Source: Phyllobates terribilis
Lineage: Eukaryota
Reading direction: 5' to 3'
Length of the DNA stretch: 64,000 nt
Assembly (NCBI RefSeq): GCF_046119375.1
Contig: NW_027362765.1
Location: forward strand, 87,110,001 to 87,174,000
Position 1 is the stretch's first letter, and each line of letters starts with the position of its first letter. Of the stretch, positions 5,801 through 61,249 are shown piece by piece. A program made the position numbers and the translations under genes. Under the pieces are notes generated by a model, which worked only from the letters and a program-made list of their open reading frames with translations, was not told where the DNA came from and did no database searches.

Positions 5801-8800
5801 CAGGGCTTGGGTTAGGGCTCAGTTTTGAGCTAAAGTTCGCGCGCAGGGCTTGGGTTACGGCTCAGATTAGAGCTAGAGTTCGCGCTCAGAGCAGGGCTTG
5901 GGTTAGGGCTCTGTTTAGAGCCAGAGTTAGCACTCAGAGCAGGGCTTTGGTTATAGCTCAGGTTAGAGCTAGAGTTAGCGCTCAGAGCAGGGCTTGGGTT
6001 AGGGCTCAGGTTAGAGCTAGAGTTCGTGCTCAGAGTAGGGCTTGGGTTACGGCTCAGATTAGAGCTAGAGTTCGCGCTCAGAGCAGGGCTTGGGTTAGGG
6101 CTCAGGTTAGAGCTAGAGTTCGCGCTCAGAGCAGGGCTTGGGTTATAGCTCAGGTTAGAGCTAGAGTTAGCGCTCAGAGCAGGGCTTGGGTTACGGCTCA
6201 GATTAGAGCTAGAGTTCGCGCTCAGAGCAGGGCTTGGATTAGGGCTCAGGTTAGAGCTAGAGTTCGCGCTCAGAGCAGGGCTTGGGTAAGGGCTCAGGTT
6301 AGAACTAGAGTTAGCGCTCAGAGCAGGGCTTAGGTTATAGCTCAGGTTAGAGCTTGAGTTCGCGCTCAGAGCAGGGCTTGGGTTATAGCTCAGGTTAGAG
6401 CTAGAGTTTGTGCTCAGAGCAGGGCTTAGGTTATAGCTCAGGTTAGAGTTCGTGCTCAGAGCAGGGCTTGGGTTATAGCTCGGGTTAGAGCAAGAGTTCA
6501 CGCTCAGAGCAGGGCTTGGGTTAGGGCTCAGCTTAGAGCTAGAGTTCGCGCTCAGAGCAGGGCTTGGGTTAGGGCTCAGTTTTGAGCTAGAGTTAGCGCT
6601 CAGAGCAGGGCTTAGGTTATAGCTCAGGTTAGAGCTAGAGTTAGCGCTCAGAGCAGGGCTTGGGTTAGGGCTTAGGTTAGAGCTAGAGTTCGCGATCAGA
6701 GCAGGGCTTGGGTTATAGCTCAGGTTAGAGCTAGAGTTAGCGCTCAGAGCAGGGCTTGGTTTAGGGCTCAGATTAGAGCTAGAGTTCGCCCTCAGAGCAG
6801 GGCTTGGGTTATAGCTCAGGTTAGAGCTAGAGTTAGCGCTCAGAGCAGGGCTTGGGTTACGGCTCAGATTAGAGCTAGAGTTCGCGCTCAGAGCAGGGCT
6901 TGGATTAGGGCTCAGGTTAGAGCTAGAGTTCGCGCTCAGAGCAGGGCTTGGGTTAGGGCTCAGGTTAGAGCTAGAGTTAGCGCTCAGAGCAGGGCTTGGG
7001 TTATCGCTCAGGTTAGAGCTAGAGTTCGCACTCAGAGCAGGGCTTGGGTTAGGGCTCAGGTTAGAGCTAGAGTTCGCGCTCAGAGCAGGGCTTTGGTTAT
7101 AGCTCAGGTTAGAGCTAGAGTTCGCACTCAGAGCAGGGCTTGGGTTAGGGCTCAGGTTAGAGCTAGAGTTCGCGCTCAGAGCAGGGCTTTGGTTATAGCT
7201 CAGGTTAGAGCAAGAGTTCACGCTCAGAGCAGGGCTTGGGTTAGGGCTCAGCTTAGAGCTAGAGTTCGCGCTCAGAGCAGGGCTTGGGTTAGGGCTCTGT
7301 TTTGAGCTAGAGTTAGCGCTCAGAGCAGGGCTTAGGTTATAGCTCAGGTTAGAGCTAGAGTTGGCGCTCAGAGCAGGGCTTGGGTTAGGGCTCAGGTTAG
7401 AGCTAGAGTTCGCGATCAGAGCAGGGCTTGGGTTATAGCTCAGGTTAGAGCTAGAGTTTGCGCTCAGAGCAGGGCTTGGTTTAGGGCTCAGATTAGAGCT
7501 AGAGTTCGCGCTCAGAGCAGGGCTTGGGTTAGGGCTCAGTTTTGAGCTAGAGTTAGCGCTCATAGCAGGGCTTAGGTTATAGCTCAGGTTAGAGCTAGAG
7601 TTCGCGCTCAGAGCAGGGCTTGGGTTAGGGCTCAGTTTTGAGCTAAAGTTCGCGCTCAGAGCAGGGCTTGGGTTACGGCTCAGATTAGAGCTAGAGTTCG
7701 TGCTCAGAGCAGGGCTTGGGTTATAGCTCAGGTTAGAGCTAGAGTTAGCGCTCAGAGCAGGGCTTGGGTTAGGGCTCAGTTTAGAGCTAGAGTTAGCACT
7801 CAGAGCAGGGCTTTGGTTATAGCTCAGGTTAGAGCTAGAGTTAGCGCTCAGAGCAGGGCTTGGGTTAGGGCTCAGGTTAGAGCTAGAGTTCGTGCTCAGA
7901 GCAGGGCTTGGGTTACGGCTCAGATTAGAGCTAGAGTTCGCGCTCAGAGCAGGGCTTGGGTTATAGCTCAAGTTAGAGCTAGAGTTAGCGCTCAGAGCAG
8001 GGCTTGGGTTACGGCTCAGATTAGAGCTAGAGTTAGCGCTCAGAGCAGGGCTTGGATTAGGGCTCAGGTTAGAGCTAGAGTTCGCGCTCAGAGCAGGGCT
8101 TGGGTTAGGGCTCAGGTTAAAGCTAGAGTTAGCGCTCAGAGCAGGGCTTAGGTTATAGCTCAGGTTAGAGCTAGAGTTCGCGCTCAGAGCAGGGCTTGGG
8201 TTAGGGCTCAGGTTAGAGCTAGAGTTAGCGCTCAGAGCAGGGCTTGGTTTATAGCTCAGGTTAGAGCTAGAGTTCGCGCTCAGAGCAGTGCTTGGGTTAG
8301 GGCTCAGTTTCGAGCAAAAGTTCGCCCTCAGAGCAGGGCTTGGGTTATGGCTCAGATTAGAGCAAGAGTTCGCGCTCAGAGCAGGGCTTGGGTTATAGCT
8401 CAGGTTAGAGCTAGAGTTAGCGCTCAGAGCAGGGCTTGGGTTATAGCTCAGGTTAGAGCTAGAGTTAGCGCTCAGAGCAGGGCTTGGGTTAGGGCTCAGG
8501 TTAGAGCTAGAGTTAGCGCTCAGAGCAGGGCTTGGGTTAGGGCTCAGGTTAGAGCTAGAGTTCGCGCTCAGAGCAGGGCTTGGGTTACGGCTCAGATTAG
8601 AGCTAGAGTTCGCGCTCAGAGCAGCGCTTGGATTAGGGCTCAGGTTAGAGCTAGAGTTCGCGCTCAGAGCAGGGCTTGGGTTATAGCTCAGGTTAGAGCT
8701 TGAGTTCGCGCTCAGAGCAGGGCTTGGGTTATAGCTCAGGTTAGAGCTAGAGTTTGTGCTCAGAGCAGGGCTTAGGTTATAGCTCAGGTTAGAGCTAGAG

Positions 8801-11800
8801 TTCGCGCTCAGAGCAGGGCTTGGGTTAGGGCTCAGGTTAGAGCTAGAGTTCGCGATCAGAGCAGGGCTTGGGTTATAGCTCAGGTTAGAGCTAGAGTTAG
8901 CGCTCAGAGCAGGGCTTGGTTTAGGGCTCAGATTAGAGCTAGAGTTCGCGCTCAGAGCAGGGCTTGGGTTAGGGCTCAGTTTTGAGCTAGAGTTAGCACT
9001 CAAAGCAGGGCTTGGGTTACGGCTCAGATTAGAGCTAGAGTTCGCGCTCAGAGCAGGGCTTGGGTTATAGCTCAGGTTAGAGCTAGAGTTAGCGCTCAGA
9101 GCAGGGCTTGGGTTATAGCTCAGGTTAGAGCTAGAGTTTGTGCTCAGAGCAGGGCTTGGGTTATAGCTCAGGTTAGAGCTAGAGTTCACGCTCAGAGCAG
9201 GGCTTGGGTTAGGGCTCAGCTTAGAGCTAGAGTTCGCGCTCAGAGCAGGGCTTGGGTTAGGGCTCAGTTTTGAGCTAGAGTTAGCGCTCAGAGCAGGGCT
9301 TAGGTTATAGCTCAGGTTAGAGCTAGAGTTCGCGCTCAGAGCAGGGCTTGGGTTAGGGCTCAGGTTAGAGCTAGAGTTCGAGATCAGAGCAGGGCTTGGG
9401 TTATAGCTCAGGTTAGAGCTAGAGTTAGCGCTCAGAGCAGGGCTTGGTTTAGGGCTCAGATTAGAGCTAGAGTTCGCGCTCAGAGCAGGGCTTGGGTTAG
9501 GGCTCAGTTTTGAGCTAGAGTTAGCACTCAAAGCAGGGCTTAGCTTATAGCTCAGGTTAGAGCTAGAGTTCGCGCTCAGAGTAGGGCTTGGGTTAGGGCT
9601 CAGTTTTGAGCTAAAGTTCGCGCTCAGAGCAGGGCTTGGGTTACGGCTCAGATTAGAGCTAGAGTTCGCGCTCAGAGCAGGGCTTGGGTTATAGCTCAGG
9701 TTAGAGCTAGAGTTAGCGCTCAGAGCAGGGCTTGGGTTATAGCTCAGGTCAGAGCTAGAGTTATCGCTCAGAGCAGGGCTTGGGTTATAGCTCAGGTTAG
9801 AGCTAGAGTTGGCGCTCAGAGCAGGGCTTGGGTTAGGGCTCAGGTTAGAGCTAGAGTTCGCGATCAGAGCAGGGCTTGGGTTATAGCTCAGGTTAGAGCT
9901 AGAGTTGGCGCTCAGAGCAGGGCTTGGTTTAGGGCTCAGATTAGAGCTAGAGTTCGCGCTCAGAGCAGGGCTTGGGTTAGGGCTCACTTTTGAGCTAGAG
10001 TTAGCACTCAAAGCAGGGCTTGGGTTACGGCTCAGATTAGAGCTAGAGTTCGCGCTCAGAGCAGGGCTTGGGTTATAGCTCAGGTTAGAGCTAGAGTTAG
10101 CGCTCAGAGCAGGGCTTGGGTTATAGCTCAGGTCAGAGCTAGAGTTATCGCTCAGAGCAGGGCTTGGGTTAGGGCTCATTTTAGAGCTAGAGTTAGCACT
10201 CAGAGCAGGGCTTGGGTTACGGCTCTGATTAGAGCTAGAGTTCGCGCTCAGAGCAGGGCTTGGGTTAGGGCTCAGTTTTGAGCTAGAGTTAGCGCTCAGA
10301 GCAGGGCTTAGGTTATAGCTCAGGTTAGAGCTAGAGTTGGCGCTCAGAGCAGGGCTTGGGTTAGGGCTCAGGTTAGAGCTAGAGTTCGCTATCAGAGCAG
10401 GGCTTGGGTTATAGCTCAGGTTAGAGCTAGAGTTAGCGCTCAGAGCAGGGCTTGGGTTAGGGCTCAGTTTTGAGCTAAAGTTCGCGCTCAGAGCAGGGCT
10501 TGGGTTACGGCTCAGATTAGAGCTAGAGTTCGCGCTCAGAGCAGGGCTTGGGTTATAGCTCAGGTTAGAGCTAGAGTTAGCGCTCAGAGCAGGGCTTGGG
10601 TTATAGGTCAGGTCAGAGCTAGAGTTATCGCTTAGAGCAGGGCTTGGGTTAGGGCTCAGTTTAGAGCTAGAGTTAGCACTCAGAGCAGGGCTTTGGTTAT
10701 AGCTCAGGTTAGAGCTAGAGTTAGCGCTCAGAGCAGGGCTTGGGTTAGGGCTCAGGTTAGAGCTAGAGTTCGTGCTCAGAGCAGGGCTTGGGTTACGGCT
10801 CAGATTAGAGCTAGAGTTCGCGCTCAGAGCAGGGCTTGGATTAGGGCTCAGGTTAGAGCTAGAGTTCGCGCTCAGAGCAGGGCTTGGGTTAGGGTCAGGT
10901 TAAAGCTAGAGTTAGCGCTCAGAGCAGGGCTTAGGTTATAGCTCAGGTTAGAGCTAGAGTTCGCGCTCAGAGCAGGGCTTGGGTTAGGGCTCAGGTTAGA
11001 GTTAGAGTTCGCGCTCAGAGCAGGGCTTGGTTTATAGCTCAGGTTAGAGCTAGAGTTCGCGCTCAGAGCAGTGCTTGGGTTAGGGCTCAGTTTCGAGCAA
11101 AAGTTCGCCCTCAGAGCAGGGCTTGGGTTATGGCTCAGATTAGAGCTAGAGTTCGCGCTCAGAGCAGGGCTTGGGTTATAGCTCAGGTTAGAGCTAGAGT
11201 TAGCGCTCAGAGCAGGGCTTGGGTTATAGCTCAGGTTAGAGCTAGAGTTAGCGCTCAGAGCAGGGCTTGGGTTAGGGCTCAGTTTAGAGCTAGAGTTAGC
11301 GCTCAGAGCAGGGCTTGGGTTAGTGCTCAGGTTAGAGCTAGAGTTCATGCTCAGAGCAGGGCTTGGGTTACGGCTCAGATTAGAGCTAGAGTTCGCGCTC
11401 AGAGCAGGGCTTGGATTAGGGCTCAGGTTAGAGCTAGAGTTCGCGCTCAGAGCAGGGCTTGGTTAGGGCTCAGGTTAGAGCTAGAGTTAGCGCTCAGAGC
11501 AGGGCTTAGGTTATAGCTCACGTTAGAGCTTGAGTTCGCGCTCAGAGCAGGGCTTGGGTTATAGCTCAGGTTAGAGCTAGAGTTTATGCTCAGAGCAGGG
11601 CTTGGGTTATAGCTCAGGTTAGAGCTAGAGTTCGCACTCAGAGCAGGGCTTGGGTTAGGGCTCAGGTTAGAGCTAGAGTTCGCGCTCAGAGCAGGGCTTT
11701 GGTTATAGCTCAGGTTAGAGCAAGAGTTCACGCTCAGAGCAGGGCTTGGGTTAGGGCTCAGCTTAGAGCTAGAGTTTGCGCTCAGAGCAGGGCTTAGGTT

Positions 11801-13360
11801 ATAGCTCAGGTTAGAGCTAGAGTTGGCGCTCAGAGCAGGGCTTTGGTTAGGGCTCAGGTTAGAGCTAGCGTTCGCGATCAGAGCAGGGCTTGGGTTATAG
11901 CTCAGGTTAGAGCTAGAGTTAGCGCTCAGAGCAGGGCTTAGGTTATAGCTCAGGTTAGAGCTAGAGTTCGCGCTCAGAGCAGGGCTTGGTTTAGGGCTCA
12001 GTTTTGAGCTAAAGTTCGCGCTCAGAGCAGGGCTTGGGTTACGGCTCAGATTAGAGTTCGCGCTCAGAGCAGGGCTTGGGTTATAGCTCAGGTTAGAGCT
12101 AGAGTTAGCGCTCAGAGCAGGGCTTGGGTTATAGCTCAGGTCAGAGCTAGAGTTATCGCTCAGAGCAGGGCTTGGGTTAGGGCTCAGTTTAGAGCTAGAG
12201 TTAGCACTCAGAGCAGGGCTTTGGTTATAGCTCAGGTTAGAGCTAGAGTTAGCGCTCAGAGCAGGGCTTGGGTTAGGGCTCAGGTTAGAGCTAGAGTTCG
12301 TGCTCAGAGCAGGGCTTGGGTTACGACTCAGATTAGAGCTAGAGTTCGCGCTCAGAGCAGGGCTTGGGTTAGGGCTCAGGTTAGAGCTAGAGTTCGCGCT
12401 CAGAGCAGGGCTTGGGTTAGGGCTCAGGTTAGAGCTAGAGTTCGCGCTCAGAGCAGGGCTTGGGTTAGGGCTCAGTTTTGAGCTAGATTTAGCGCTCAGA
12501 GCAGGGCTTAGGTTATAGCTCAGGCTAGAGTTAGCGCTCAGAGCAGGGCTTGGGTTAGGGCTCAGGTTAGAGCTAGAGTTTGTGCTCAGAGCAGGGCTTG
12601 GGTTATAGCTCAGGTTAGAGCTAGAGTTCGCGCTCAGAGCAGGGCTTGGGTTAGGGCTCAGTTTTAAGCTAAAGTTCGCACTCAGAGCAGGGCTTGGTTA
12701 GGGCTCAGATTAGAGCTAGAGTTAGCGCTCAGAGCATGGCTTGGGTTAGGGCTCAGGTTAGAGCTAGAATTTGCGCTCAGAGTAGGGCTTGGGTTAGGGC
12801 TCAGATTAGAGTTTGTGCTCAGAGCAGGGCTTGGGTTAGGGCTCAGGTTAGAGCTAGAGTTCGCGCTCAGAGTAGGGCTTGGTTAGGGCTCAGTTTAGAG
12901 CTACAGTTAGTGCTCAGAGCAGGGCTTGGGTTATAGCTCAGGTTAGAGCTAGAGTTAGCGCTCAGAGCAGGGCTTGGGTTAGGGCTCAGGTTAGAGCTAG
13001 AGTTCGCGCTCAGAGCAGGGCTTGGGTTAGGGCTCAGGTTAGAGCTAGAGTTAGCGCTCAGAGCAGGGCTTGGGTTATAGCTCAGGTTAGAGCTACAGTT
13101 AGCGTCAAGAGCAGGGCTTGGTTAGGGCTCAGTTTAGAGCTAGAGTTAGCGCTCAGAGCATGGCTTGGGTTAGGGCTCAGGTTAGAGCTAGAATTTGCGC
13201 TCCGAGTAGGGCTTGGGTTAGGGCTCAGATTAGAGTTTGTGCTCAGAGCAGGGCTTGGGTTAGGGCTCAGGTTCAAGTTAGGGCTAGAAGTAAGGCCCTG
13301 GTTACTGTTCAGGTTAGGGTTAGAGTTATAGATTTAGGTCTTAGAGCAGGGCTTGGGTTA
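2860..13360 (+). repeat. 48-bp tandem satellite (~215 units) made of 8 degenerate TTAGGG-like hexamers
   Basis: Consensus GTTCGC GCTCAG AGCAGG GCTTGG GTTAGG GCTCAG GTTAGA GCTAGA; 16-aa periodicity in all ORF translations. Confidence 0.97.
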
Positions 13361-16674: not shown

Positions 16675-16832
16675 TGCATACAGTGTGTGTATATGGGAGT
16701 GTGCACATGTATGTGCAGATATACAATCTGTATATATAGGAGTGTGTACACATGTGTTTATGTACATGTATGTACAGTGTGTATATAGGGGTGTACATGA
16801 ATGTATGTCTGTATGTACAGTGAGTGTGTGTA

Positions 16833-16867
<35 letters not shown>

Positions 16868-19800
16868 GTACAGTGAGTGTGTGTATGTGTGTGTGTATAT
16901 ATATATATATATGTACAGTGTGTGTATGGGAGTGTACATGTATGTACAGTGTGTGTGTATGGGAGTGTACATGTATGTACAGTGTGTGTGTGTATGGGAG
17001 TGTACATGTATGTACAGTGTGTGTGTATGGGAGTGTACATGTATGTACAGTGTGTGTGTGTATGGGAGTGTACATGTATGTACAGTGTGTGTGTGTATGG
17101 GAGTGTACATGTATGTACAGTGTGTGTGTGTGTATGGGAGTGTACATGTATGTACAGTGTGTGTGTGTGTATGNNNNNNNNNNNNNNNNNNNNNNNNNNN
17201 NNNNNNNNNNNNNNNNNNNNNNNNNNNNNNNNNNNNNNNNNNNNNNNNNNNNNNNNNNNNNNNNNNNNNNNNNNNNNNNNNNNNNNNNNNNNNNNNNNNN
17301 NNNNNNNNNNNNNNNNNNNNNNNNNNNNNNNNNNNNNNNNNNNNNNNNNNNNNNNNNNNNNNNNNNNNNNNNNNNNNNGTGTGTGTGTGTATGGGAGTGT
17401 ACATGTATGTACAGTGTGTGTGTGTGTATGGGAGTGTACATGTATGTACAGTGTGTGTGTGTGTATGGGAGTNNNNNNNNNNNNNNNNNNNNNNNNNNNN
17501 NNNNNNNNNNNNNNNNNNNNNNNNNNNNNNNNNNNNNNNNNNNNNNNNNNNNNNNNNNNNNNNNNNNNNNNNNNNNNNNNNNNNNNNNNNNNNNNNNNNN
17601 NNNNNNNNNNNNNNNNNNNNNNNNNNNNNNNNNNNNNNNNNNNNNNNNNNNNNNNNNNNNNNNNNNNNNNNNNNNNNNNNNNNNNNNNNNNNNNNNNNNG
17701 TGTGTGTGTGTATGNNNNNNNNNNNNNNNNNNNNNNNNNNNNNNNNNNNNNNNNNNNNNNNNNNNNNNNNNNNNNNNNNNNNNNNNNNNNNNNNNNNNNN
17801 NNNNNNNNNNNNNNNNNNNNNNNNNNNNNNNNNNNNNNNNNNNNNNNNNNNNNNNNNNNNNNNNNNNNNNNNNNNNNNNNNNNNNNNNNNNNNNNNNNNN
17901 NNNNNNNNNNNNNNNNNNNNNNNNNNNNNNNNNNNNNNNNNNNNNNNNNNNNNNNNNNNNNNNNNNNNNNNNNNNNGTGTGTGTGTGTGTATGNNNNNNN
18001 NNNNNNNNNNNNNNNNNNNNNNNNNNNNNNNNNNNNNNNNNNNNNNNNNNNNNNNNNNNNNNNNNNNNNNNNNNNNNNNNNNNNNNNNNNNNNNNNNNNN
18101 NNNNNNNNNNNNNNNNNNNNNNNNNNNNNNNNNNNNNNNNNNNNNNNNNNNNNNNNNNNNNNNNNNNNNNNNNNNNNNNNNNNNNNNNNNNNNNNNNNNN
18201 NNNNNNNNNNNNNNNNNNNNNNNNNNNNNNNNNNNNNNNNNNNNNNNNNNNNNNNNNNNNNNNNNNNNNNNNNNNNNNNNNNNNNNNNNNNNNNNNGTGT
18301 GTGTATGGGAGTGTACATGTATGTACAGTGTGTGTATGGGAGTGTACATGTATGTACAGTGTGTGTGTGGGAGTGTACATGTATGTACAGTGTGTGTGTG
18401 TGTGGGAGTGTACATGTATGTACAGTGTGTGTGTGTGTGGGAGTGTACATGTATGTACAGTGTGTGTGTGTGTGGGAGTGTACATGTATGTACAGTGTGT
18501 GTGTGTATGGGAGTGTACATGTATGTACAGTGTGTGTGTGTATGGGAGTGTACATGTATGTACAGTGTGTGTGTGTGTATGGGAGTGTACATGTATGTAC
18601 AGTGTGTGTGTGTGTGTGTATGGGAGTGTACATGTATGTACAGTGTGTGTGTGTGTATGGGAGTGTACATGTATGTACAGTGTGTGTATGGGAGTGTACA
18701 TGTATGTACAGTGTGTGTGTGGGAGTGTACATGTATGTACAGTGTGTGTGTGTGTGGGAGTGTACATGTATGTACAGTGTGTGTGTGTGTGGGAGTGTAC
18801 ATGTATGTACAGTGTGTGTGTGTGTATGGGAGTGTACATGTATGTACAGTGTGTGTGTGTGTATGGGAGTGTACATGTATGTACAGTGTGTGTGTGTGTA
18901 TGGGAGTGTACATGTATGTACAGTGTGTGTGTGTGTGTATGGGAGTGTACATGTATGTACAGTGTGTGTGTGTGTATGGGAGTGTACATGTATGTACAGT
19001 GTGTGTGTGTGTATGGGAGTGTACATGTATGTACAGTGTGTGTGTGTGTATGGGAGTGTACATGTATGTACAGTGTGTGTGTGTGTATGGGAGTNNNNNN
19101 NNNNNNNNNNNNNNNNNNNNNNNNNNNNNNNNNNNNNNNNNNNNNNNNNNNNNNNNNNNNNNNNNNNNNNNNNNNNNNNNNNNNNNNNNNNNNNNNNNNN
19201 NNNNNNNNNNNNNNNNNNNNNNNNNNNNNNNNNNNNNNNNNNNNNNNNNNNNNNNNNNNNNNNNNNNNNNNNNNNNNNNNNNNNNNNNNNNNNNNNNNNN
19301 NNNNNNNNNNNNNNNNNNNNNNNNNNNNNNNNNNNNNNNNNNNNNNNNNNNNNNNNNNNNNNNNNNNNNNNNNNNNNNNNNNNNGTGTGTGTGTGTGTAT
19401 GGGAGTGTACATGTATGTACAGTGTGTGTATGGGAGTGTACATGTATGTACAGTGTGTGTATGGGAGTGTACATGTATGTACAGTGTGTGTGTGGGAGTG
19501 TACATGTATGTACAGTGTGTGTGTGTGTGGGAGTGTACATGTATGTACAGTGTGTGTGTGTGTGGGAGTGTACATGTATGTACAGTGTGTGTGTGTGTGG
19601 GAGTGTACATGTATGTACAGTGTGTGTGTGTATGGGAGTGTACATGTATGTACAGTGTGTGTGTGTATGGGAGTGTACATGTATGTACAGTGTGTGTGTG
19701 TGTATGGGAGTGTACATGTATGTACAGTGTGTGTGTGTGTATGGGAGTGTACATGTATGTACAGTGTGTGTATGGGAGTGTACATGTATGTACAGTGTGT

Positions 19801-22176
19801 GTGTGGGAGTGTACATGTATGTACAGTGTGTGTGTGTGTGGGAGTGTACATGTATGTACAGTGTGTGTGTGTGTGGGAGTGTACATGTATGTACAGTGTG
19901 TGTGTGTGTATGGGAGTGTACATGTATGTACAGTGTGTGTATGGGAGTGTACATGTATGTACAGTGTGTGTATGGGAGTGTACATGTATGTACAGTGTGT
20001 GTGTGGGAGTGTACATGTATGTACAGTGTGTGTGTGTGTGGGAGTGTACATGTATGTACAGTGTGTGTGTGTGTGGGAGTGTACATGTATGTACAGTGTG
20101 TGTGTGTGTGGGAGTGTACATGTATGTACAGTGTGTGTGTGTATGGGAGTGTACATGTATGTACAGTGTGTGTGTGTATGGGAGTGTACATGTATGTACA
20201 GTGTGTGTGTGTGTATGGGAGTGTACATGTATGTACAGTGTGTGTGTGTGTATGGGAGTGTACATGTATGTACAGTGTGTGTATGGGAGTGTACATGTAT
20301 GTACAGTGTGTGTGTGGGAGTGTACATGTATGTACAGTGTGTGTGTGTGTGGGAGTGTACATGTATGTACAGTGTGTGTGTGTGTGGGAGTGTACATGTA
20401 TGTACAGTGTGTGTGTGTGTATGGGAGTGTACATGTATGTACAGTGTGTGTGTGTGTATGGGAGTGTACATGTATGTACAGTGTGTGTGTGTGTATGGGA
20501 GTGTACATGTATGTACAGTGTGTGTGTGTGTGTATGGGAGTGTACATGTATGTACAGTGTGTGTGTGTGTATGGGAGTGTACATGTATGTACAGTGTGTG
20601 TGTGTGTATGGGAGTGTACATGTATGTACAGTGTGTGTGTGTGTATGGGAGTGTACATGTATGTACAGTGTGTGTATGGGAGTGTACATGTATGTACAGT
20701 GTGTGTGTGGGAGTGTACATGTATGTACAGTGTGTGTGGGAGTGTACATGTATGTACAGTGTGTGTGTGTATGGGAGTGTACATGTATGTACAGTGTGTG
20801 TGTGTGTATGGGAGTGTACATGTATGTACAGTGTGTGTGTGTGTATGGGAGTGTACATGTATGTACAGTGTGTGTATGGGAGTGTACATGTATGTACAGT
20901 GTGTGTGTGGGAGTGTACATGTATGTACAGTGTGTGTGTGTGTGGGAGTGTACATGTATGTACAGTGTGTGTGTGTGTGGGAGTGTACATGTATGTACAG
21001 TGTGTGTGTGTGTATGGGAGTGTACATGTATGTACAGTGTGTGTGTGTGTATGGGAGTGTACATGTATGTACAGTGTGTGTGTGTGTATGGGAGTGTACA
21101 TGTATGTACAGTGTGTGTGTGTGTATGGGAGTGTACATGTATGTACAGTGTGTGTGTGTGTATGGGAGTGTACATGTATGTACAGTGTGTGTGTGTGTAT
21201 GGGAGTGTACATGTATGTACAGTGTGTGTGTGTGTATGGGAGTGTACATGTATGTACAGTGTGTGTGTGTGTATGGGAGTGTACATGTATGTACAGTGTG
21301 TGTATGGGAGTGTACATGTATGTACAGTGTGTGTATGGGAGTGTACATGTATGTACAGTGTGTGTGTGGGAGTGTACATGTATGTACAGTGTGTGTGTGT
21401 GTGGGAGTGTACATGTATGTACAGTGTGTGTGTGTGTGGGAGTGTACATGTATGTACAGTGTGTGTGTGTGTATGGGAGTGTACATGTATGTACAGTGTG
21501 TGTGTGTGTATGGGAGTGTACATGTATGTACAGTGTGTGTGTGTGTGTATGGGAGTGTACATGTATGTACAGTGTGTGTGTGTGTGTATGGGAGTGTACA
21601 TGTATGTACAGTGTGTGTGTGTGTATGGGAGTGTACATGTATGTACAGTGTGTGTGTGTGTATGGGAGTGTACATGTATGTACAGTGTGTGTGTGTGTAT
21701 GGGAGTGTACATGTATGTACAGTGTGTGTATGGGAGTGTACATGTATGTACAGTGTGTGTGTGGGAGTGTACATGTATGTACAGTGTGTGTGTGTGTGGG
21801 AGTGTACATGTATGTACAGTGTGTGTGTGTGTGGGAGTGTACATGTATGTACAGTGTGTGTGTGTATGGGAGTGTACATGTATGTACAGTGTGTGTGTGT
21901 ATGGGAGTGTACATGTATGTACAGTGTGTGTGTGTGTATGGGAGTGTACATGTATGTACAGTGTGTGTGTGTGTATGGGAGTGTACATGTATGTACAGTG
22001 TGTGTGTGTGTATGGGAGTGTACATGTATGTACAGTGTGTGTGTGTGTGTATGGGAGTGTACATGTATGTACAGTGTGTGTGTGTGTATGGGAGTGTACA
22101 TGTATGTACAGTGTGTGTGTGTGTATGGGAGTGTACATGTATGGCTGTATGTACAGTGTGTGTATATAGGGATGTA
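16675..22176. repeat. Compound minisatellite: constant core ATGGGAGTGTACATGTATGTACA plus a variable (GT)n linker
   Basis: Read directly; units about 29-39 bp; fills most of BIRC5 intron 1. Confidence 0.96.
17174..19384. other. Five assembly gaps (N runs) inside the minisatellite
   Basis: N at 17174-17378, 17473-17699, 17715-17976, 17994-18296 and 19095-19384. Confidence 0.98.
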
Positions 22177-24476: not shown

Positions 24477-25585
24477 TGGCAGGTTGGAGAAGGGTCGCAG
24501 GGTCCTGCGGTCATGGATTACTGGCAGGTGGGAGAAGGGTAGCAGGGTCCTGCGGTCATGGATTACTGGCAAGTGGGAGAAGGGTCGCAGAGTCCATCAG
24601 TCATGGATTACTGGCAGGTGGGAGAAGGGTAGCAGGGTCCAGCGGTCATGGATTACTGGCAGGTGGGAGAAGGGTAGCAGGGTCCAGCGGTCATGGATTA
24701 CTGGCAGGTGGGAGAAGGGTAGCAGGGTCCAGCGGTCATGGATTACTGGCAGGTGGGAGAAGGGTAGCAGGGTCCAGCGGTCATGGATTACTGGCAGGTG
24801 GGAGAAGGGTAGCAGGGTCCTGCGGTCATGGATTACTGGCAGGTGGGAGAAGTGTCGCAGGGTCCAGCGGTCATGGATTACTGGCAGGTGGGAGGAGGGT
24901 CGCAGGGTCCAGCAGTCATGGATTACTGGCAGGTGGGAGAAGGGTCGCTGCGTCCTGCGGTTATGGATTACTGGCAGGTGGGAGGAGTGTCGCTGGGTCC
25001 TGCGGTCATGGATTACTGGCAGGTGGGAGAAGGGTCCAGCGGTCATGGATTACTGGCAGGTGGGAGAAGGGTAGCAGGGTCCAGCGGTCATGGATTACTG
25101 GCAGGTGGGAGAAGGGTAGCAGGGTCCAGCGGTCATGGATTACTGGCAGGTGGGAGAAGGGTAGCAGGGTCCAGCGGTCATGGATTACTGGCAGGTGGGA
25201 GAAGGGTAGCAGGGTCCAGCGGTCATGGATTACTGGCAGGTGGGAGAAGGGTAGCAGGGTCCTGCGGTCATGGATTACTGGCAGGTGGGAGAAGTGTAGC
25301 AGGGTCCTGCGGTCATGGATTACTGGCAGGTGGGAGAAGTGTCGCAGGGTCCAGCAGTCATGGATTACTGGCAGGTCGGAGGAGGGTCGCAGGGTCCAGC
25401 AGTCATGGATTACTGGCAGGTGGGAGAAGGGTCGCTGCGTCCTGCGGTCATGGATTACTGGCAGGTGGGAGGAGTGTCGCTGGGTCCTGCGGTCATGGAT
25501 TACTGGCAGGTGGGAGAAGGGTCCAGCGGTCATGGATTACTGGCAGGTGGGAGGAGGGTCGCAGGGTCCTGCAGTCTTGGATTAC
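24477..25585 (+). repeat. 45-bp G-rich minisatellite (~25 units, two 36-bp variants)
   Basis: GGCAGGTGGGAGAAGGGTAGCAGGGTCCAGCGGTCATGGATTACT; 15-aa periodicity in translations. Confidence 0.95.
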
Positions 25586-25953
25586 TAACATGGCCACTGG
25601 ATTAGGCACCTGCCAATCGATTTGTTCATCTCTATCTTGGAGCCACGGATCCCCCGGTAAGTGCCGTTCTCCCCATATGACTTCTCTCTTCCAAGAAACA
25701 GGGCTAAGTTGTTATGGGCCGAGGCCGCAGTGTACAGTTGTCGCAGTAGATGTGGCTCTGTATACCGGACCTTATGGAGTATGTACTGTATATACACCGG
25801 GAGGGCAGTGTCTTCTGAATGACACAGGAGATGTTGGGAGCAGTAGTACCACCCACACATTGTCAGAGTGTCTAATGGGTCAGCCATTAGCGGTAATGAT
25901 TCCACTGACTGCCCTGGTCCTGCAGTCGCTAACCATTATCTTCCTCCTTACAG

Positions 25954-51965: not shown

Positions 51966-53104
51966 GATGCCTTTTTTTCAACTCACTTTTCTTTTTTGAT
52001 CTATGGTTTTCGCTGACTTTTTTTGTGAAAAATTCATCAAAATGGCTCACAAGATTCATGAATTTTGCGCACTGCCCAAAATTTTCTTTTTTTTCTCTGT
52101 TTTTGCGACTTTTTAGTGGGAAATGGCCATAAAAAAATTCACCAAAATGACTATCTTGCATAAAATCACTCTGGGGGGCTGCAACATATTTTGCAACTTT
52201 TAAAAAGTCATATTTCATGAATCTCTCTAGAACATCTGGAAAAGCTACATTCACGTAAAAATCTGAAAAGATTTTAAGCCAGAAATGGCTTTGATAAGTT
52301 ATTTGCTCAAAAAATGTGCAACTGTTGGCCTTTTTCATGCCAGTTTTGCCCAGCTCTGCCAAGAAGGGATGAATGGGACCACGATGCCACAGCTCGTCTA
52401 ATTCATGACAAGCTGTGGTGTACCTTACGCCAGAAATCTTACTCCAGTCCTTTGACTGGAGTAAGATTTGTGGTGAGGCTCATGGAGGCACATGTCACTT
52501 TTCAGATGCCCCTGATTCATTAAGAGACCTCTCACTTAATGAATCTAGCGCCTATGACTCCAACCCTTATCAAGTTGCTCACACTAGTCTTCATGAATCG
52601 GGGCCTAACTAAAACCACAAAAGACAACATAGAATATTCACTAATTGAGGGGTATTATTCATGCCCCAAAAAATGTTGAAAATGCAATGATGAATCGGGC
52701 CCACAATTTTGGGCTTTGCACAAAATCCATGAATCGCATGCTCCATTTTTATGAATTTTGCACAAAAAACATCAGCGAAAACCACAAGTCAAAAAGCAAA
52801 AGTGACTTAAAAAAAACTCCCGCTAGTGATGAATTGGGTCATTTGTCTTCATGGGCTTGTAGCCGGGAGTCCTGCTCTGGTGTTTGTGTTCTAAAAAGGC
52901 TATGTGACAATTTTTCTCCAGTAATAGAAGCTTTTTTTTTAGCAACACATCTGTGGCTGGTGGTGTACTTATTGTCCTATGGGCCCGATGCAAACATTGG
53001 ACCTTGGCCCCCACCAGCACACTGGTCAAAAGGATAAAGATACTGTAATAATGCCCCACGCCCTGGACCCTTTCTTTTATATTGTTCTTCATCCCAGCCC
53101 CTAT

Positions 53105-53570: not shown

Positions 53571-54216
53571 ATTAATGGCCCTTGTCCGGAGCCCCTTCTA
53601 TTCTTCTCCAGTACATTTAAAAAAGAATAAAACAAATATTCTTACCTGTGCGGCGTCCTCCTCTATAGCTGGCGCAGAAGCTGGCAGCTTACTTCTTCAT
53701 GCACCACCCGACATCGGCAAGCTGACTTCTATTGCCATTCTCTGATTGTCTGGCAGCGCGTATTGCCACAATACATTCCAGCTGAATGTGTGTCCGAGGA
53801 CGCCCACCCAGGTGAAATTGGTGTCAGTGGCTGTGGCCTCAACTCTGCAAAACCTTAGCTAACGTGTCATCATTACACAGTGCTGGTACATATTTATTAA
53901 TGATATCGAACACTCCCGAAATTGTAAACTTTAAGGGCTCATTCAGACGTTCATTTTTTACATATACGAGTTTTTGTTCAGACTTTCATCACAGTGTCTT
54001 CAGAATTTAGTCTCATCAGTTTTTCTCCAATGAGAAAAAAAATCTCCAGCTTCTCCTATCAACCAGTCCGTAAAAAACGGAAAACACATCAATGACATCT
54101 GAGTGCTGTCCAATTTTTTCATGGACCCATAGACTTCCATTGGCGATTTTGATCTGACACTAGGATCGACAAAAATAATCAGATATGTGAACTGTCCCAT
54201 AGACTATCATAGGTAC

Positions 54217-55033
54217 TGTAGCATCGGCGTCTCTGCCCCGTACTAGGCAGAGACGCCGTCCCTCTCACCTCCCCGCTCCAGGCGCGGCGTCCTCCAGCAC
54301 TTCTCTCCCAGCTGCTTCCGGCATGCGCTCCTTCCCCGGCAGTGTGCTTAGGGCGCGCGCGCTCCCCCTCTCTTAAAGGGACTGCGCGCGCCGTCCTAAG
54401 GAGTCCCCGGCCAATTGCCGGAGGACCTCCCATATATAAGGCACCTCCTCCAAAATGGAGGTGCAGGAGCAATGTTGTTGCAAAGCCTTCACTCTGCTTC
54501 AGCCCTCAGGTCCCGTTACCAGTTACCTGCCAGTCACCTGCCAGATTCCTGCTTGTTACCTGCCAGTCACCTGCCAGATTCCTGCTTGATACCTGCCTGA
54601 TATCCGCTTACCTGCTTGCAAGCCTGCGGTCCGACGGTCTGCCTTCCGACACCTGTCAGTCTGTCTATGGACCAGCCTGCCCGCTCACCTGGGAGCGCTC
54701 ACCTACTACCTGTCTGCTAGCCTACCTGGAGGCTCCGCTGTCACGTGCTGTGACCACCTGCCTGTCCAGAGACTCTTGCCCGCTCACCTGGGAGCGCTCA
54801 CCTGCTACCTGCCTGCTACCCTACCTGGAGGCTCTGCCGTCACTTGCCGTGACCACTCGCCTGTCTAGAGACTGTCCCCGTCACTTGCCGTGACCTCCTG
54901 CCCTTCTACCCAGAGACTGTCCCCGTCACTAGCCGTGACTACCTGCCCGCCTTCCCTGGGAGCCACCCGCTTCCTTACAAGGACTGCCCCCTTGTATAGT
55001 TGCTCAGAGGTTCCACCTCCCAGACCCGTTACA
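54217..55033 (+). repeat. 5' LTR (817 bp)
   Basis: TGTAGC...GTTACA; TATATAA at 54433; two 33-bp internal repeats. Confidence 0.96.
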
Positions 55034-55046
55034 GTTTGCTCGGGCC

Positions 55047-55988
55047 ATGGAACCCGGTGGTCCCCAGATCTCCGATCTGCACCAGGAAGTCTTACGTCAG
55101 AAAACTCAGCAGGAGGTGGTACTGTCCTATCTACGGTCCGTTAACTCTCGTTTAGGCGCATTGTGTGACTCGTCTTTGTCTACCTCTGGTCCAGCCGTGC
55201 CCATTCCTGCGGTACCGCAATCCAGTCCCTTCATGGTACTCGACTATGGACCTCGGCTTCTGGCACCTCCACGCTTTGCCGGCGAACCTTCTTTAGCTCA
55301 GGGTTTCATAAACCAGTGCACCCTGCACTTTGAGCTATTGGCATACCAGTTCATCTCCGACCGGGCCAAGGTGGCCTTCATCATGTCCCATCTCACTGGG
55401 GAGGCACTGGCATGGCTAAATCCCCTGTGGGAGAGAGGGGATCCCCTGGTGTCCGACCTGCCGTCTTTCCTCGCTGCTTTCCGAAAAGTCTTCGATGAAC
55501 CTGGACGGAAAACCTCTTCTGCCTCTTCTCTGCTATGTCTCCGCCAAGGGAGTCTCACCGTGGGCCAATATGCCATACGGTTCCGCACCCTCGCTTCTGA
55601 GCTTGCCTGGGAAAATGAGGCTCTGGCATCCGTCTTCTGGGAGGGTCTTTCCGGTCGGATTAAGGACGAGTTAGCTGGTCGGGATATTCCTACCACTCTG
55701 GATGACCTGGTGTCACTAGCTACCCGGATTGGCATCCGGTTCCAAGAACGTGCCAAAGAGACTGCCTGGGAGAAAGACTTTTCTTGCTCTGCTCCTACTT
55801 CCCTGAGACCTGCCTCTCAACCAGTCACTCCGCGGGCGCCCTCGTCTGAACCTATGCAGATCGACCAGACCAAGATGGTCAGATCTCGCCAAGAATCTCG
55901 CCGAGCCGAGGGAAGCTGTTTCTATTGTGGCAGTATGGAGCACTTCATCCGTTCCTGCCCGGAAAAGCCGGGAAACGCCAGTGTCTAG
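55047..55988 (+). CDS. Gag, 313 aa, with CCHC zinc knuckle
   Basis: Open ORF; retrotransposon gag motifs (RAKVAFIMSHLTGEALAW, QGSLTVGQYAIRF), CFYCGSMEHFIRSC. Confidence 0.93.
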   Translation: MEPGGPQISDLHQEVLRQKTQQEVVLSYLRSVNSRLGALCDSSLSTSGPAVPIPAVPQSSPFMVLDYGPRLLAPPRFAGEPSLAQGFINQCTLHFELLAYQFISDRAKVAFIMSHLTGEALAWLNPLWERGDPLVSDLPSFLAAFRKVFDEPGRKTSSASSLLCLRQGSLTVGQYAIRFRTLASELAWENEALASVFWEGLSGRIKDELAGRDIPTTLDDLVSLATRIGIRFQERAKETAWEKDFSCSAPTSLRPASQPVTPRAPSSEPMQIDQTKMVRSRQESRRAEGSCFYCGSMEHFIRSCPEKPGNASV

Positions 55989-58263
55989 GACCGCTCGGAG
56001 AGGTCGTCCTAGACAAAAGTAAGCCCTCTCCGTCTCTGACTTTACCGGTCTCTATTGCTTGGGGAGAAAACCGTCACTTTGAACTCGCCCACCTGGATTC
56101 TGGAGCTGCTGGAAACCTCATCTCCCAGTCTCTGGTAGAGAGATACCGTATTCCCACCAAGCCCCTGGCTGAACCATTGTCAGTCGCCTCCGTGGATGGA
56201 AGACTTCTCTCGGAGACCATCCTGCTCGTCACTGAACCCATAACCCTGCAGGTGGGAATGCTGCACTCTGAGGAAATCTCATTCCATGTGCTGTCCGGAC
56301 TTTCTCACTCCCTGTTGCTAAGTCTACCCTGGCTCCAGACACACGAACCCGTATTGAACTGGCGATCCGGTGAAGTACTCCGATGGGGTCCAGACTGCCA
56401 TAGGACCTGCCTGGTTCCGGTTCGCCCAGCTCGCCCTCCGCCTACTCCAGCTAATTTACCAGGTCTTCCGGCTCCTTACTGGCCCTATGCGGACGTCTTC
56501 GGTAAGAAGGAAGCAGAGACGTTGCCACCCCATAGGCCATATGACTGCCCGATCGACCTGGTACCTGGCACCACTCCTCCTCGTGGGCGTATCTACCCGT
56601 TGTCTGCAGCCGAGACCCGGTCCATGTCTGAGTACATTGAAGAGAATCTGGCTAGGGGATTTATCCGAAAATCTACCTCCCCGGCTGGAGCCGGATTCTT
56701 CTTTGTCAAAAAGAAAGACGGCTCATTACGTCCCTGTATTGACTACAGAGGACTCAATCTCATCACAGTAAAAAACAAATACCCCCTGCCGCTCATCTCC
56801 GAATTGTTTGACCGTCTCAAGGGCGCCAGGATCTTCTCCAAGCTGGATCAACGAGGAGCATATAACCTGGTCCGTATCCGTCAAGGAGACGAGTGGAAGA
56901 CGGCATTCAATACCCGGGACGGTCACTATGAGTACCTTGTGATGCCCTTCGGTCTCTGTAATGCGCCCGCTGTCTTTCAAGAACTAGTCAACGACATCTT
57001 CCGTGACCTCCTGTACTCCTGCGTAGTGGTATACCTGGACGATATCTTGGTCTTCTCTCCGGATCTCCCCACACACCGAAGGGATGTTCGTCAGGTCCTG
57101 CTTAGGCTTCGGCAGAACCACCTCTATGCCAAATACGAGAAGTGCCTCTTCGACCAGACCTCCCTACCGTTCTTGGGCTATGTCATCTCCCAGACAGGTC
57201 TGCAAATGGATCCCGAGAAGCTCTCTTCCGTTCTAAAATGGCCTCGTCCTGAAGGTTTGAAGGCGATACAGCGATTCCTGGGCTTCGCTAATTACTATCG
57301 TCTTTTCATCCCACACTTCTCGTCTCGGACTGCTCCCATATCTGCACTCACCCGTAAGGGGGCTATTCCCAGGACATGGTCGCCTGAAGCCGAGGAGGCC
57401 TTCCTTTCCTTAAAGAAAGCCTTCGCCTCTGCTCCCGTCCTGCACCGTCCGGACTGTAATAAACAATTCTACCTGGAGCTTGATGCCTCCTCCTCCGGAG
57501 CCGGAGCGGTACTCACCCAAAAATCTTCTACCGGGAGAATGGTAACCTGCGGCTTCTTCTCCAAAATCTTCTCCTCGTCTGAGCGCAACTACTCCATAGG
57601 AGACCGTGAATTGCTAGCCATCAAATTGGCACTGGGGGAGTGGCGCTATCTGCTTGAAGGGGCTCTCTACCCGGTAATTATCTACACGGATCACAAAAAC
57701 CTGGCATATCTCCAAAATGCCCAGAGACTCAATCCTCGCCAGGCCCGGTGGTCGTTGTTTTTTGCCCGCTTCGACTTCATTCTTCATTTCCATCCGGCGG
57801 ACAAGAACGTCAAAGCTGATGCCTTGTCCCGGTCCTTCCTGTCCTCCGATCAAGAGGAGGAGCCTACGCACATCATCGACTCCTCCAAGGTGATGAATGT
57901 GGCCCCCTTGGATCTGACTCGTCTCCCACCCGGTAAGACGTTTGTAGCTGTACCAGATCGGGAGAGGGTTCTTCGCTGGGGACATTCTTCTAAACTAGCT
58001 GGCCATGCTGGCCAAAAGAAGACCTTCCAACTCATTACCCGGCATTACTGGTGGCCTTCCCTGCGTAAGGACGTGGTAGACTTCGTCACGGCCTGCTCAT
58101 CCTGTGCCCGTAACAAAGTTCCCAGACATCTTCCAGCCGGCCATCTCCTGCCCCTTCCCGTACCTGCTGCTCCTTGGCAGCACATTGCTATGGACTTTAT
58201 CACCGATCTTCCTATTTCTGCCGGTTGTACAGTCTTTTGGGTTGTCGCTGACCGCTTTCTAAG
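55970..58263 (+). CDS. Pol (protease, RT, RNase H, N-terminal integrase), entered by -1 frameshift
   Basis: LDSGA, YLVMPFGLCNAP, YLDDIL, ELDASS, TDHKNL, HHCC (H-SSKLAG-H...CSSC), AMDFITDL; frame open up to a 1-bp deletion at 58256-58258. Confidence 0.93.
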
Positions 58264-59982
58264 ATGGCCCACTTCATTCCCCTGCCTGGTCTCCCATCTG
58301 CACCCGAGCTGGCTAAAGACTTTATCTGCCACATCTTCCGTCTCCATGGCCTGCCCCTCCACATCGTGTCGGATCGTGGGGTTCAGTTCACCTCACGCTT
58401 CTGGAGAGACACATGTAAGCTGCTTGACATCACCCTGGACTTCTCCTCCGCTTACCACCCACAGTCCAATGGTCAAGTGGAGCGGATCAATCAGATCCTG
58501 ACCAGTTACCTCCGGCACTTCGTTAATGCACACCATTCGGACTGGGTGGATCTCCTACCATGGGCCGAGTTCTCTTACAATAACCATGAGAGCGAATCCT
58601 CTTCCAAATCCCCGTTCTTTATAGTCGGTGGCCGACATCCCCGGATTCCACTTCCTGTCTCCGTTTCTGTGGACAACCCTGCTGCGGAGTCTCTTGTCAG
58701 CGAATTTTCTACTATTTGGGAGAGTACCAGGTCCGCTCTTCTTCTGTCCTCTGAGCGGATGAAGAGATATGCTGATAAGAGACGTCTGGATCCGCCTCAA
58801 TTCCGTCCGGGAGACAAGGTTTGGCTCTCGTCCAAACAATTGCTGCTCAAAGTACCCTCCTTCAAGTTGGGCCCTCGATTCATCGGTCCCTTCGTAGTCC
58901 TCAGGCAAATTAACCCTGTGGCCTACAAATTAAAACTCCCGGCCACCCTACGGATTCCCAACTCCTTCCACGTATCTCTCCTCAAACCCGTTGTCTTTAA
59001 CTCTTTTTCCAATAATCCAGGTGCCCCTCCTGCTCCGGTTTCCGCTGACGACGTCTTTGAGGTAGAGAGTATTCTGGCCTCCAAGAGGGTAAGAGGAAAA
59101 ACCTTTTTTCTGGTGGATTGGAGGGGGTTTGGTCCTGAGGAGAGAACTTGGGAACCCAGGGAGAACATCAACGCCCCGCTTCTCCTTGAAAAATTTCTTT
59201 CTGGCCAAAAAAAGAGGGGGCCTAAAGGGGGGGGTACTGTAGCATCGGCGTCTCTGCCCCGTACTAGGCAGAGACGCCGTCCCTCTCACCTCCCCGCTCC
59301 AGGCGCGGCGTCCTCCAGCGCTTCTCTCCCCGCTGCTTCCGGCACGCGCTCCTTCCCCGGTAGTGTGCTTAGGGCGCGCGCGCGCTCCCCCTCTCTTAAA
59401 GGGACCGCGCGCGCCGTCCTAAGGAGTCCCCGGCCAATTGCCGGAGGACCTCCCATATATAAGGCACCTCCTCCAAAATGGAGGTGCCCGAGCAATGTTG
59501 TTGCAAAGCCTTCACTCTGCTTCAGCCCTCAGGTCCCGTTACCAGTTACCTGCCAGTCACCTGCCAGATTCCTGCTTGTTACCTGCCAGTCACCTGCCAG
59601 ATTCCTGCTTGTTACCTGCCAGTCACCTGCCAGATTCCTGCTTGTTACCTGCCAGTCACCTGCCAGATTCCTGCTTGATACCTGCCTGATATCCGCTTAC
59701 CTGCTTGCAAGCCTGCGGTCCGACGGTCTGCCTTCCGACACCTGTCAGTCTGTCTATGGACCAGCCTGCCCGCTCACCTGGGAGCGCTCACCTACTACCT
59801 GTCTGCTAGCCTACCTGGAGGCTCCGCCGTCACGTGCTGTGACCACCTGCCTGTCCAGAGACTCTTGCCCGCTCACCTGGGAGCGCTCACCTGCTACCTG
59901 CCTGCTAGCCTACCTGGAGGCTCTGCCGTCACTTGCCGTGACCACCCGCCTGTCTAGAGACTGTCCCCGTCACTTGACGTGA
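58264..59982 (+). pseudogene. Integrase core, GPY/F and chromodomain, frameshifted from upstream pol; the frame continues into the 3' LTR
   Basis: MAHFIPL, VSDRGVQF, GQVERINQ, GPRFIGPF, FEVESIL...FLVDWRGFGPEERTWEP. Confidence 0.88.
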
Positions 59983-60122
59983 CCTCCTGCCCTTCTACCC
60001 AGAGACTGTCCCCGTCACTAGCCGTGACTACCTGCCCGCCTTCCCTGGGAGCCACCCGCTTCCTTACAAGGACTGCCCCCTTGTATAGTTGCTCAGAGGT
60101 TCCACCTCCCAGACCCGTTACA
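59238..60122 (+). repeat. 3' LTR (885 bp)
   Basis: Follows the PPT; four 33-bp internal repeats; otherwise about 99% identical to the 5' LTR. Confidence 0.96.
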
Positions 60123-61249
60123 GGTACTTGGTCTATCCGTGAAAAACATGGATAGTATTAGTAAGTGAAAAATGGACTCTGAATGAGCCCTAAGGTGTTG
60201 AAAATACAATTGGTGTGGCATGCTTATCATGAATGATTCGAAAATTTTTAAATGGCGTCTATCTTTATTTAGAGCTATGTTACCTGCTCGATTGAGTGGT
60301 AGCCTGGATTATATGTGGCGGCCAACACTCACATTAACAATAATTCTAGTTTTTACAAAACTACACCATGTTAATTTTTTGGATACATCTATAGTGCCCC
60401 CACAGCAGGTACTGTACATCACATCTTGTACTTCTCACCAATCTCGTTAACTCATATCCAGGGTATAGAGAAGTTTAATCCCCCATAAGGAGGAGGTGAC
60501 CTGAACGCAAACTCTTTCATAAATATCCTAAGGTCTCAACTAGTGATGAGCGAGCATGCTCGCAACTGCTCAGTGCTCGCCCAAACATCTCACTGCTCGA
60601 CAAGCTCGGCGCTCGGTGAGTATTTCCACGGTTGCTCGGTGGGAGCTCGGGTCTCCTCCCTGCATGTTTGGCGCTCTTTAGAGTGCCAATCAACAAGCAG
60701 GGATTGCCTGCCACTCATTGTAATGCCGCAGCCATGTTGGTTGTGGCATTACAGTGATTGGCTGGCCGCACAGGGTCATCAGGTCTATATCAGACCTGGC
60801 GCCGCCATGCTCGTCACAGTCACTCCGGAATCAGGCAGTGTAGGGAGGGGTGCTGCTGAGCTAGGGAGAGATTTGCTTGTTCCTAGTTAGTGTAGGTATA
60901 CCAGACTATATTAGAGACACATATACATTTCAACAAACAAACATTCCTTCTGAGGACTAATCCAGCTGCAGAGATATCAGGCAGGCAGTGCATATAGGCT
61001 GGCTGGCAGGGTATATAGCAGACTGCAGTGCACATAGCAAGAGGGTCCATTCCAGTTCTATCTGCTGGTGCTTTTACAGATATTTGTAGAAATAGGCCCA
61101 GGTATCAGGAGCCAGGAATATATATATATTTTTATCTTAATCCTGATTATTTGCTTAAAAAGCAATCCAGAGAACAGCTTATCTGAGCTATTTGCTTGTT
61201 GGCAATGCAGAATACAGCCAGGTCCTTTCCATATTACAGCGCTAAAAAT

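Follow-up and report, generated by a model that had tools for sequence, protein, structure and literature searches.

A predicted self-primer altered in one ageing copy of an abundant, likely self-priming chromovirus family in Phyllobates terribilis

Introduction

In the retrotransposon Tf1, the RNA's initial 11 bases are described as pairing with the PBS, and RNase H as cutting between bases 11 and 12 (PMC7175516). The accounts available of the wider Tf1/sushi group present self-priming as one of its common features, vertebrates included (PMC10085805, PMC6317226, PMC4600332); in their telling, Tf1 is where it has been demonstrated, and in other elements it is implicated or predicted. In a literature search covering papers other than Butler 2001, the main paper on the vertebrate members, we found no report of compensatory primer–PBS changes in an amphibian-type genome.

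Here we describe a Tf1/sushi-type element of the frog Phyllobates terribilis, in a window of 64,000 nucleotides (assembly GCF_046119375.1, contig NW_027362765.1, positions 87,110,001 to 87,174,000 of the forward strand; positions below are those of the window). Our reading, held with considerable confidence, is that the element is old and broken and belongs to a chromodomain Ty3/gypsy family of high copy number, whose members likely prime themselves with the first ten bases of their RNA, and that a doublet substitution in the predicted primer of its 5′ LTR is likely neutral and arose after insertion. The copy itself matters little; the useful result is covariation at the level of the family, which supports self-priming in vertebrate chromoviruses.

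Results

Anatomy of the element and its PBS

The whole element spans 54217-60122, with all features on the + strand, and is bounded by 5-bp TSDs, GGTAC at 54212-54216 and the identical five bases at 60123-60127. Its 5′ LTR (54217-55033, 817 bp, TG...CA) contains internal repeats of 33 nt and 99 nt; the 3′ LTR (59238-60122, 885 bp) also runs TG...CA and follows a polypurine tract (PPT) with a 3-nt spacer (59224-59237). Between the LTRs lies a gag ORF (55047-55988) with Pfam matches to Retrotrans_gag, Ty3 capsid and the zf-CCHC zinc knuckle, followed in a different frame by the first part of pol (56012-58252), which carries protease, RT, RNase H and the integrase zinc finger. The second part of pol (58261-59190), in a frame other than that of the first part, holds the remaining integrase core, a Tf2-1-like SH3 domain and a chromodomain; over pol as a whole Pfam recovers PR, RT, RH, IN, SH3_Tf2-1 and Chromo. 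The best PDB match of pol is Ty3 Gag-Pol (E 3.7e-96), and the sole PDB match of gag is the PEG10 capsid.

The TG...CA LTRs, TSD, PPT and order gag-PR-RT-RH-IN are those of Ty3/gypsy elements, and the chromodomain at the integrase C-terminus (PF00385, E 9.4e-12) marks a chromovirus. Judged from its layout and from Pfam SH3_Tf2-1 and PEG10 similarity, the copy is a member of the known Tf1/sushi-type self-priming chromoviruses. No other relative of the element was found in the window by tblastn, and the window holds no tRNA gene; the insertion site showed no host-repeat match among the fetched loci.

The PBS, TTGCTCGGGC at 55036-55045, begins 2 nt past the end of the 5′ LTR. The 14 nt that follow the LTR contain no TGG, the first one lying at 55048 within the gag start, and the first-pass annotation was right that this PBS is not of the tRNA type. 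Its perfect reverse complement occupies 59486-59495 of the 3′ LTR, where a TATATAA starts 30 nt earlier, at 59456; the equivalent site of the 5′ LTR (54463-54472), 30 nt behind the TATA box at 54433-54439, is mismatched at 54465 and 54466. The same annotation had given the coordinates of the three ten-base sites, and each proved exact. The Tf1/sushi layout, in which there is no tRNA PBS and the PBS instead complements a stretch of the LTR behind the TATA box, thus holds for the family and the 3′ LTR, whereas in this 5′ LTR the pairing is broken by 2 nt. By simple arithmetic, a perfect 10-mer match would be expected by chance anywhere in the LTR with a probability of about 0.5%, and at 25-35 nt behind the TATA box with one of about 6e-5; because these odds are so low, the pairing between PBS and LTR is not a chance match.

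If the family behaves as Tf1 does, the G located 30 nt behind the TATA box (54463 in the 5′ LTR, 59486 in the 3′ LTR) would be where transcription starts, RNA nucleotides 1-10 would pair with the PBS, and RNase H would cut the primer free.

Primer and PBS change together between subfamilies and families

The family is very abundant in the 10.6-Gb host genome, and the copy is one among thousands of decayed members. An exact 26-mer containing the family primer finds 41,116 LTRs, and the same flanks with any ten bases between them find 44,983; the exact LTR-end/PBS/gag-start junction occurs in 16,580 places. The variant of the 5′ LTR studied here occurs twice, against those 41,116 exact copies of the primer seen in its 3′ LTR, so it is indeed the 3′ LTR that keeps the family form, as first proposed.

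T replaces A at primer position 6 in 2,553 LTRs, which form a sister subfamily. Seven of 30 sampled loci of this T-type subfamily reach the PBS, and the paired base is A in all seven (two of which carry one additional PBS change elsewhere), versus none of the 18 parsed elements that had been selected on the A-type primer alone; the seven agreements represent one inherited evolutionary event counted repeatedly, not seven. The first-pass annotation had suggested looking for covariation among family copies, and the finding that the T-type subfamily changes primer and PBS together supports the Tf1/sushi-type self-priming that it had put forward.

For a survey reaching across families, 112 loci were fetched by primer or PPT patterns. 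The loose PPT pattern was about half background and yielded few elements; overall, 59 of the 112 loci could be parsed into elements that have two LTRs and at least 1.7 kb between them, and the other 53 were dropped. In 56 of the 59, the PBS–LTR duplex scores at least 9 Watson-Crick pairs. These duplexes fall into seven primer types, all of which begin with G and lie behind a TATA-like box at 28-35 nt. Of the three elements that score under 9, one seems to have suffered an internal deletion, another to have had its LTR end miscalled, and the third to be an old copy in which a single internal position is mismatched. In a cross-family control, own pairs scored 9-11, pairs from related families up to 9-10 and unrelated pairs mostly 4-8; this score allows G-U steps and some unrelated pairs reach 7-8, so the weakest single matches lie near background.

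When the leaders are folded, the central duplex forms in most sisters, and in one of two sisters inspected the LTR end also takes part in a 4-bp helix; the helices that would flank the primer in a three-duplex 'pretzel' would be 3-4 bp long. Self-priming of the family is likely and is well supported by covariation, with an RNA start site that is predicted by position.

The copy is of typical age and its integrase frame is broken

Pol is interrupted in this copy, being split into stop-to-stop frames of 883 and 576 codons. Two anchors in the integrase are spaced 74 nt apart, versus 75 nt in 16 of the 16 sisters holding both, and this spacing puts an approximate frame break, private to the copy, at 58253-58262 within the integrase core. 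The interior of the copy has a further 34 private substitutions. Of 817 aligned columns, 11 (1.35%) differ between its LTRs, the doublet making up two of the 11; the LTRs also differ by indels of 2 nt and 66 nt. Among the sisters, LTR–LTR divergence runs from 0.24 to 3.5% with a median of 1.5%; the age of the copy is typical. The first-pass annotation had left out the 11 differences, both indels and the integrase break.

Decay is the rule in the subfamily to which the copy belongs: a pol frame of at least 1,050 codons is present in 4 of 17 complete close sisters (three of the 20 were incomplete and were left out). One sister subfamily has such a frame in 14 of 18 copies. The description of the element as almost intact and disabled by 2 nt is not supported, both in view of the integrase frame break, private to the copy, and in view of how common primer damage is in the family (8.6% of its LTRs; 5 of 38 elements altered in the 5′ LTR only), as set out below.

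Changed primers and doublets are common in the family

The primer is changed in 3,867 of the 44,983 family LTRs, a count that leaves the T-type subfamily outside (30 of 30 sampled members have different flanks). Because thousands of sister repeats are altered within the same ten letters, the two altered letters of this copy are most likely the product of ordinary ageing. Among 38 other elements not selected for intact primers, five are changed in the 5′ LTR only and one in the 3′ LTR only. Of the 30 closest loci, one is this copy, 27 others have the family primer in their 5′ LTR, one has a single change and one gave no match.

Both bases equivalent to 54465-54466 are altered in nine LTRs, in six kinds; two of these have the doublet of this copy, and one LTR of the nine, besides this copy's, is a 5′ LTR. 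The second LTR with the same doublet is a solo LTR that shares none of the four other comparable 5′-private substitutions, and since it belongs to a subfamily 11% diverged, its doublet arose independently. The mirror doublet is found in 7 PBS copies, against 16,580 intact ones. Doublets are enriched in the family generally, with 12 adjacent pairs among 256 LTR–LTR differences in 17 sisters, where 4.7 would be expected, and three among the 34 private internal substitutions of the copy, where 0.27 would be expected.

Predicted consequences for the copy

Duplex energy is -9.8 kcal/mol for the primer of this copy, against -18.8 kcal/mol for the family primer. In folding, the probability of in-register pairing is 0.00 in the leader of the copy and 0.02-0.95 (median about 0.76) in 18 sisters, one of which folds at only 0.02 with a matching primer. 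The leader of the copy is thus predicted to lose its primer duplex, and the loss in cis that the first-pass annotation had proposed is, on these folds, a fair prediction; the copy would prime poorly in cis.

On the Tf1 scheme, the primer would be removed ahead of minus-strand synthesis and the 3′ R would supply these ten bases to new LTRs; for that reason inheritance of the defect through the LTR would be expected to fail. The PBS of offspring could take the letters of the primer; the cDNA of Tf1 is described as retaining a copy of the PBS (PMC11042837). We searched for such offspring and found a single element with a PBS complementary to the changed primer; with a divergence of 18.6% and 2 of the 34 private sites in common, it is not a descendant. 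For two of the seven loci with a PBS doublet the alignment was poor, and we disregarded how many sites they share. Since about 16,600 PBS junctions are still intact and many pol frames still open, the defect would presumably bring the family no cost.

Alternative explanations

That the doublet came from faulty assembly or polishing of a high-copy repeat, hiding a true 5′ LTR with the family primer, is to our minds quite improbable. Such an error could account for the 5′ side holding six of the seven substitutions that fall within 250 nt of the LTR start, and no sample contig bridges both bases without differences, though the samples seem to lack the insertion: contigs of three samples match the 5′ flank exactly to 54216 and then diverge into non-LTR letters, so the insertion is probably missing from those samples, or else the contigs are paralogous. 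Errors in such repeats should, however, lean towards the majority letters, whereas a solo LTR has acquired this doublet independently, the PBS of another element shows it in mirrored form, and doublets are enriched across the 17 sisters. One contig each in X1 and X2 that matches through 54466 was discarded, as what we take to be library adapter begins with the same two letters. A template switch from a nearby hairpin was likewise discarded as the origin of the doublet; by eye, only 3 nt of flanking sequence match. We give scarcely any probability to gene conversion or recombination of the 5′ LTR with a variant subfamily that has a matching PBS. A second LTR with the doublet does exist, as does one element with a complementary PBS, but the former is solo, 11% diverged and without the four comparable 5′-private substitutions, while the latter, 18.6% diverged, retains the family primer at each end and has 2 of the 34 private sites in common with the copy. 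A subfamily is not made by two LTRs out of 44,983, and no variant subfamily with this doublet was found in the assembly, in which such conversion is largely refuted. Of the two origins offered by the first-pass annotation, a change after insertion is supported; for LTR recombination no donor was found.

The doublet might fail to block mobilisation, the intact PBS being primed in trans by the RNA 5′ end of a co-packaged sister, or the 6-8 remaining pairs sufficing, with proteins supplied by intact copies. We regard this as unlikely, even though the PBS is intact, some 41,000 LTRs hold a matching primer and pol frames of at least 1,050 codons persist (14/18 in the one sister subfamily, 4/17 among close sisters): no offspring was found, the sole element with a complementary PBS is unrelated, and none of 16 close sisters, a small sample, shares the private sites of the copy at majority level. 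Priming in trans is our own extrapolation, and the literature search found no paper on it. At the level of the family, a host RNA (a tRNA fragment or another) might be the primer and the LTR match might serve another role; this has very little probability in our estimate, given the lack of a TGG within 14 nt of the LTR end, the seven different PBS sequences that each track their own LTR site, and the compensatory change fixed in the T-type subfamily. Priming by the RNA 5′ end thus remains our preferred reading for the family.

Discussion

The host genome may serve as a natural mutagenesis library for vertebrate self-priming, with some 45,000 LTRs and 16,600 PBS junctions of one family and with related families showing stepwise compensatory changes. 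It is possible, though on balance doubtful, that mining it would show reverse transcription to copy primer changes into the PBS, such that it takes no more than two generations for each of the two to be corrected by the other. If this is true, vertebrate self-priming would go from a prediction to population-scale evidence, in which this copy is one data point.

The doublet resembles the multinucleotide mutations described in humans (PMC6633265, PMC4158752), in which two adjacent bases are changed above independent chance. Such events are put there at about 2% of variants, a human figure; in the frog genome the likeness is one of pattern.

Among described elements, the vertebrate V-clade (Sushi-ichi, Amn; PMC10085805, PMC6317226), as far as these sources describe it, shares with the frog family an integrase chromodomain, a Tf2-1-like SH3 domain and a PEG10-like capsid, as well as the lack of a tRNA PBS and a PBS complementary to the predicted RNA 5′ end. 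The LTR's 3′ end matches the Sushi motif CNTNACA (PMC3601003), whereas its 5′ end, TGTAGCA, departs from the motif TGTYANR. Further points of difference from the V-clade are a primer duplex of 10 bp and a spacing of 1 nt from the PBS to the gag start codon.

Tf1 and Tf2 of Schizosaccharomyces pombe and Tj1 of S. japonicus are described as having an RNA 5′-end primer that pairs with a PBS just behind the 5′ LTR (PMC7175516, PMC5341516, PMC4600332, PMC11042837), as predicted for the frog family. Tandem copies sharing one LTR, reported for these yeast elements, are present here too. In the frog element, unlike in Tf1, Tf2 and Tj1, gag and pol lie in different frames. The primer of Tf1 has 11 bases and is described as experimentally shown, whereas that of the frog family has ten and is recognized through covariation.

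Insertion site of the studied copy in other samples

The 5' flank of the studied chromodomain Ty3/gypsy copy (54217-60122) was compared with assembled contigs of sequencing runs. Contigs from three samples (runs X1, X2, X3, X4 and X6) matched the flank at 54176-54216 without a difference and, past 54216, continued in letters that are not those of the LTR. Of the eight loose letters that follow 54216 in X3 and X6, no more than four agreed with the 3' flank in the window. The insertion is probably missing from the sampled individuals, or else the contigs represent a paralogous site.

The target-site duplication, GGTAC (54212-54216), is identical to the five bases preceding the 3' LTR (59233-59237), and it recurs in one other parsed element, the host-genome locus L063; this repetition may reflect chance or a target preference.

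Promoter, primer and coding features across the family

In both LTRs, the stretch from the TATA box to the predicted self-primer holds a short inverted repeat (54441-54464 in the 5' LTR, 59464-59488 in the 3' LTR), which overlaps the first bases of the primer and is preserved among subfamilies whose interiors are 19% apart. At loci L073-L092, subfamilies with interiors ~19% different from that of the studied copy have the same TATA-primer block and PBS as it does. LTR length in these subfamilies ranges from ~800 to 1,300 bp, with 33-nt and 99-nt repeats accounting for the variation; one solo LTR exceeds 2 kb. A related family with long LTRs and an interior of just ~1.8-1.9 kb (L116, L121), probably non-autonomous, retains a primer-PBS pair of its own, which a single compensatory step separates from that of the studied copy's family.

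At the end of gag (55963-55988), directly ahead of the stop and overlapping the pol frame, is a GGGAAAC run, which resembles the PEG10-type -1 frameshift site.

Other repeats in the window

A 48-nt satellite of ~217 copies with GGTTAG-like units (2876-13273) is telomere-repeat-like, and further satellites occupy 16812-22143 and 24477-25586. Inverted arms of 112 nt each, 82% complementary and separated by 621 nt (51972-52816), read as a MITE-like element.

Tandem arrays

Head-to-tail copies at ~5.2 kb spacing were found at L021-L025 (C4 of the host genome G000, 83.94-83.96 Mb) and at L143; at these loci the same LTR has the polypurine tract (PPT) before it and the PBS after it, and they are apparent tandem arrays with shared LTRs. 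On C1 (20.01-20.02 Mb), four PPT matches lie at 4.5 kb intervals. For Tf1, tandem copies sharing LTRs that arise via integrase-independent insertion have been described (PMC11042837), and the LTR-sharing tandem copies here are like those.
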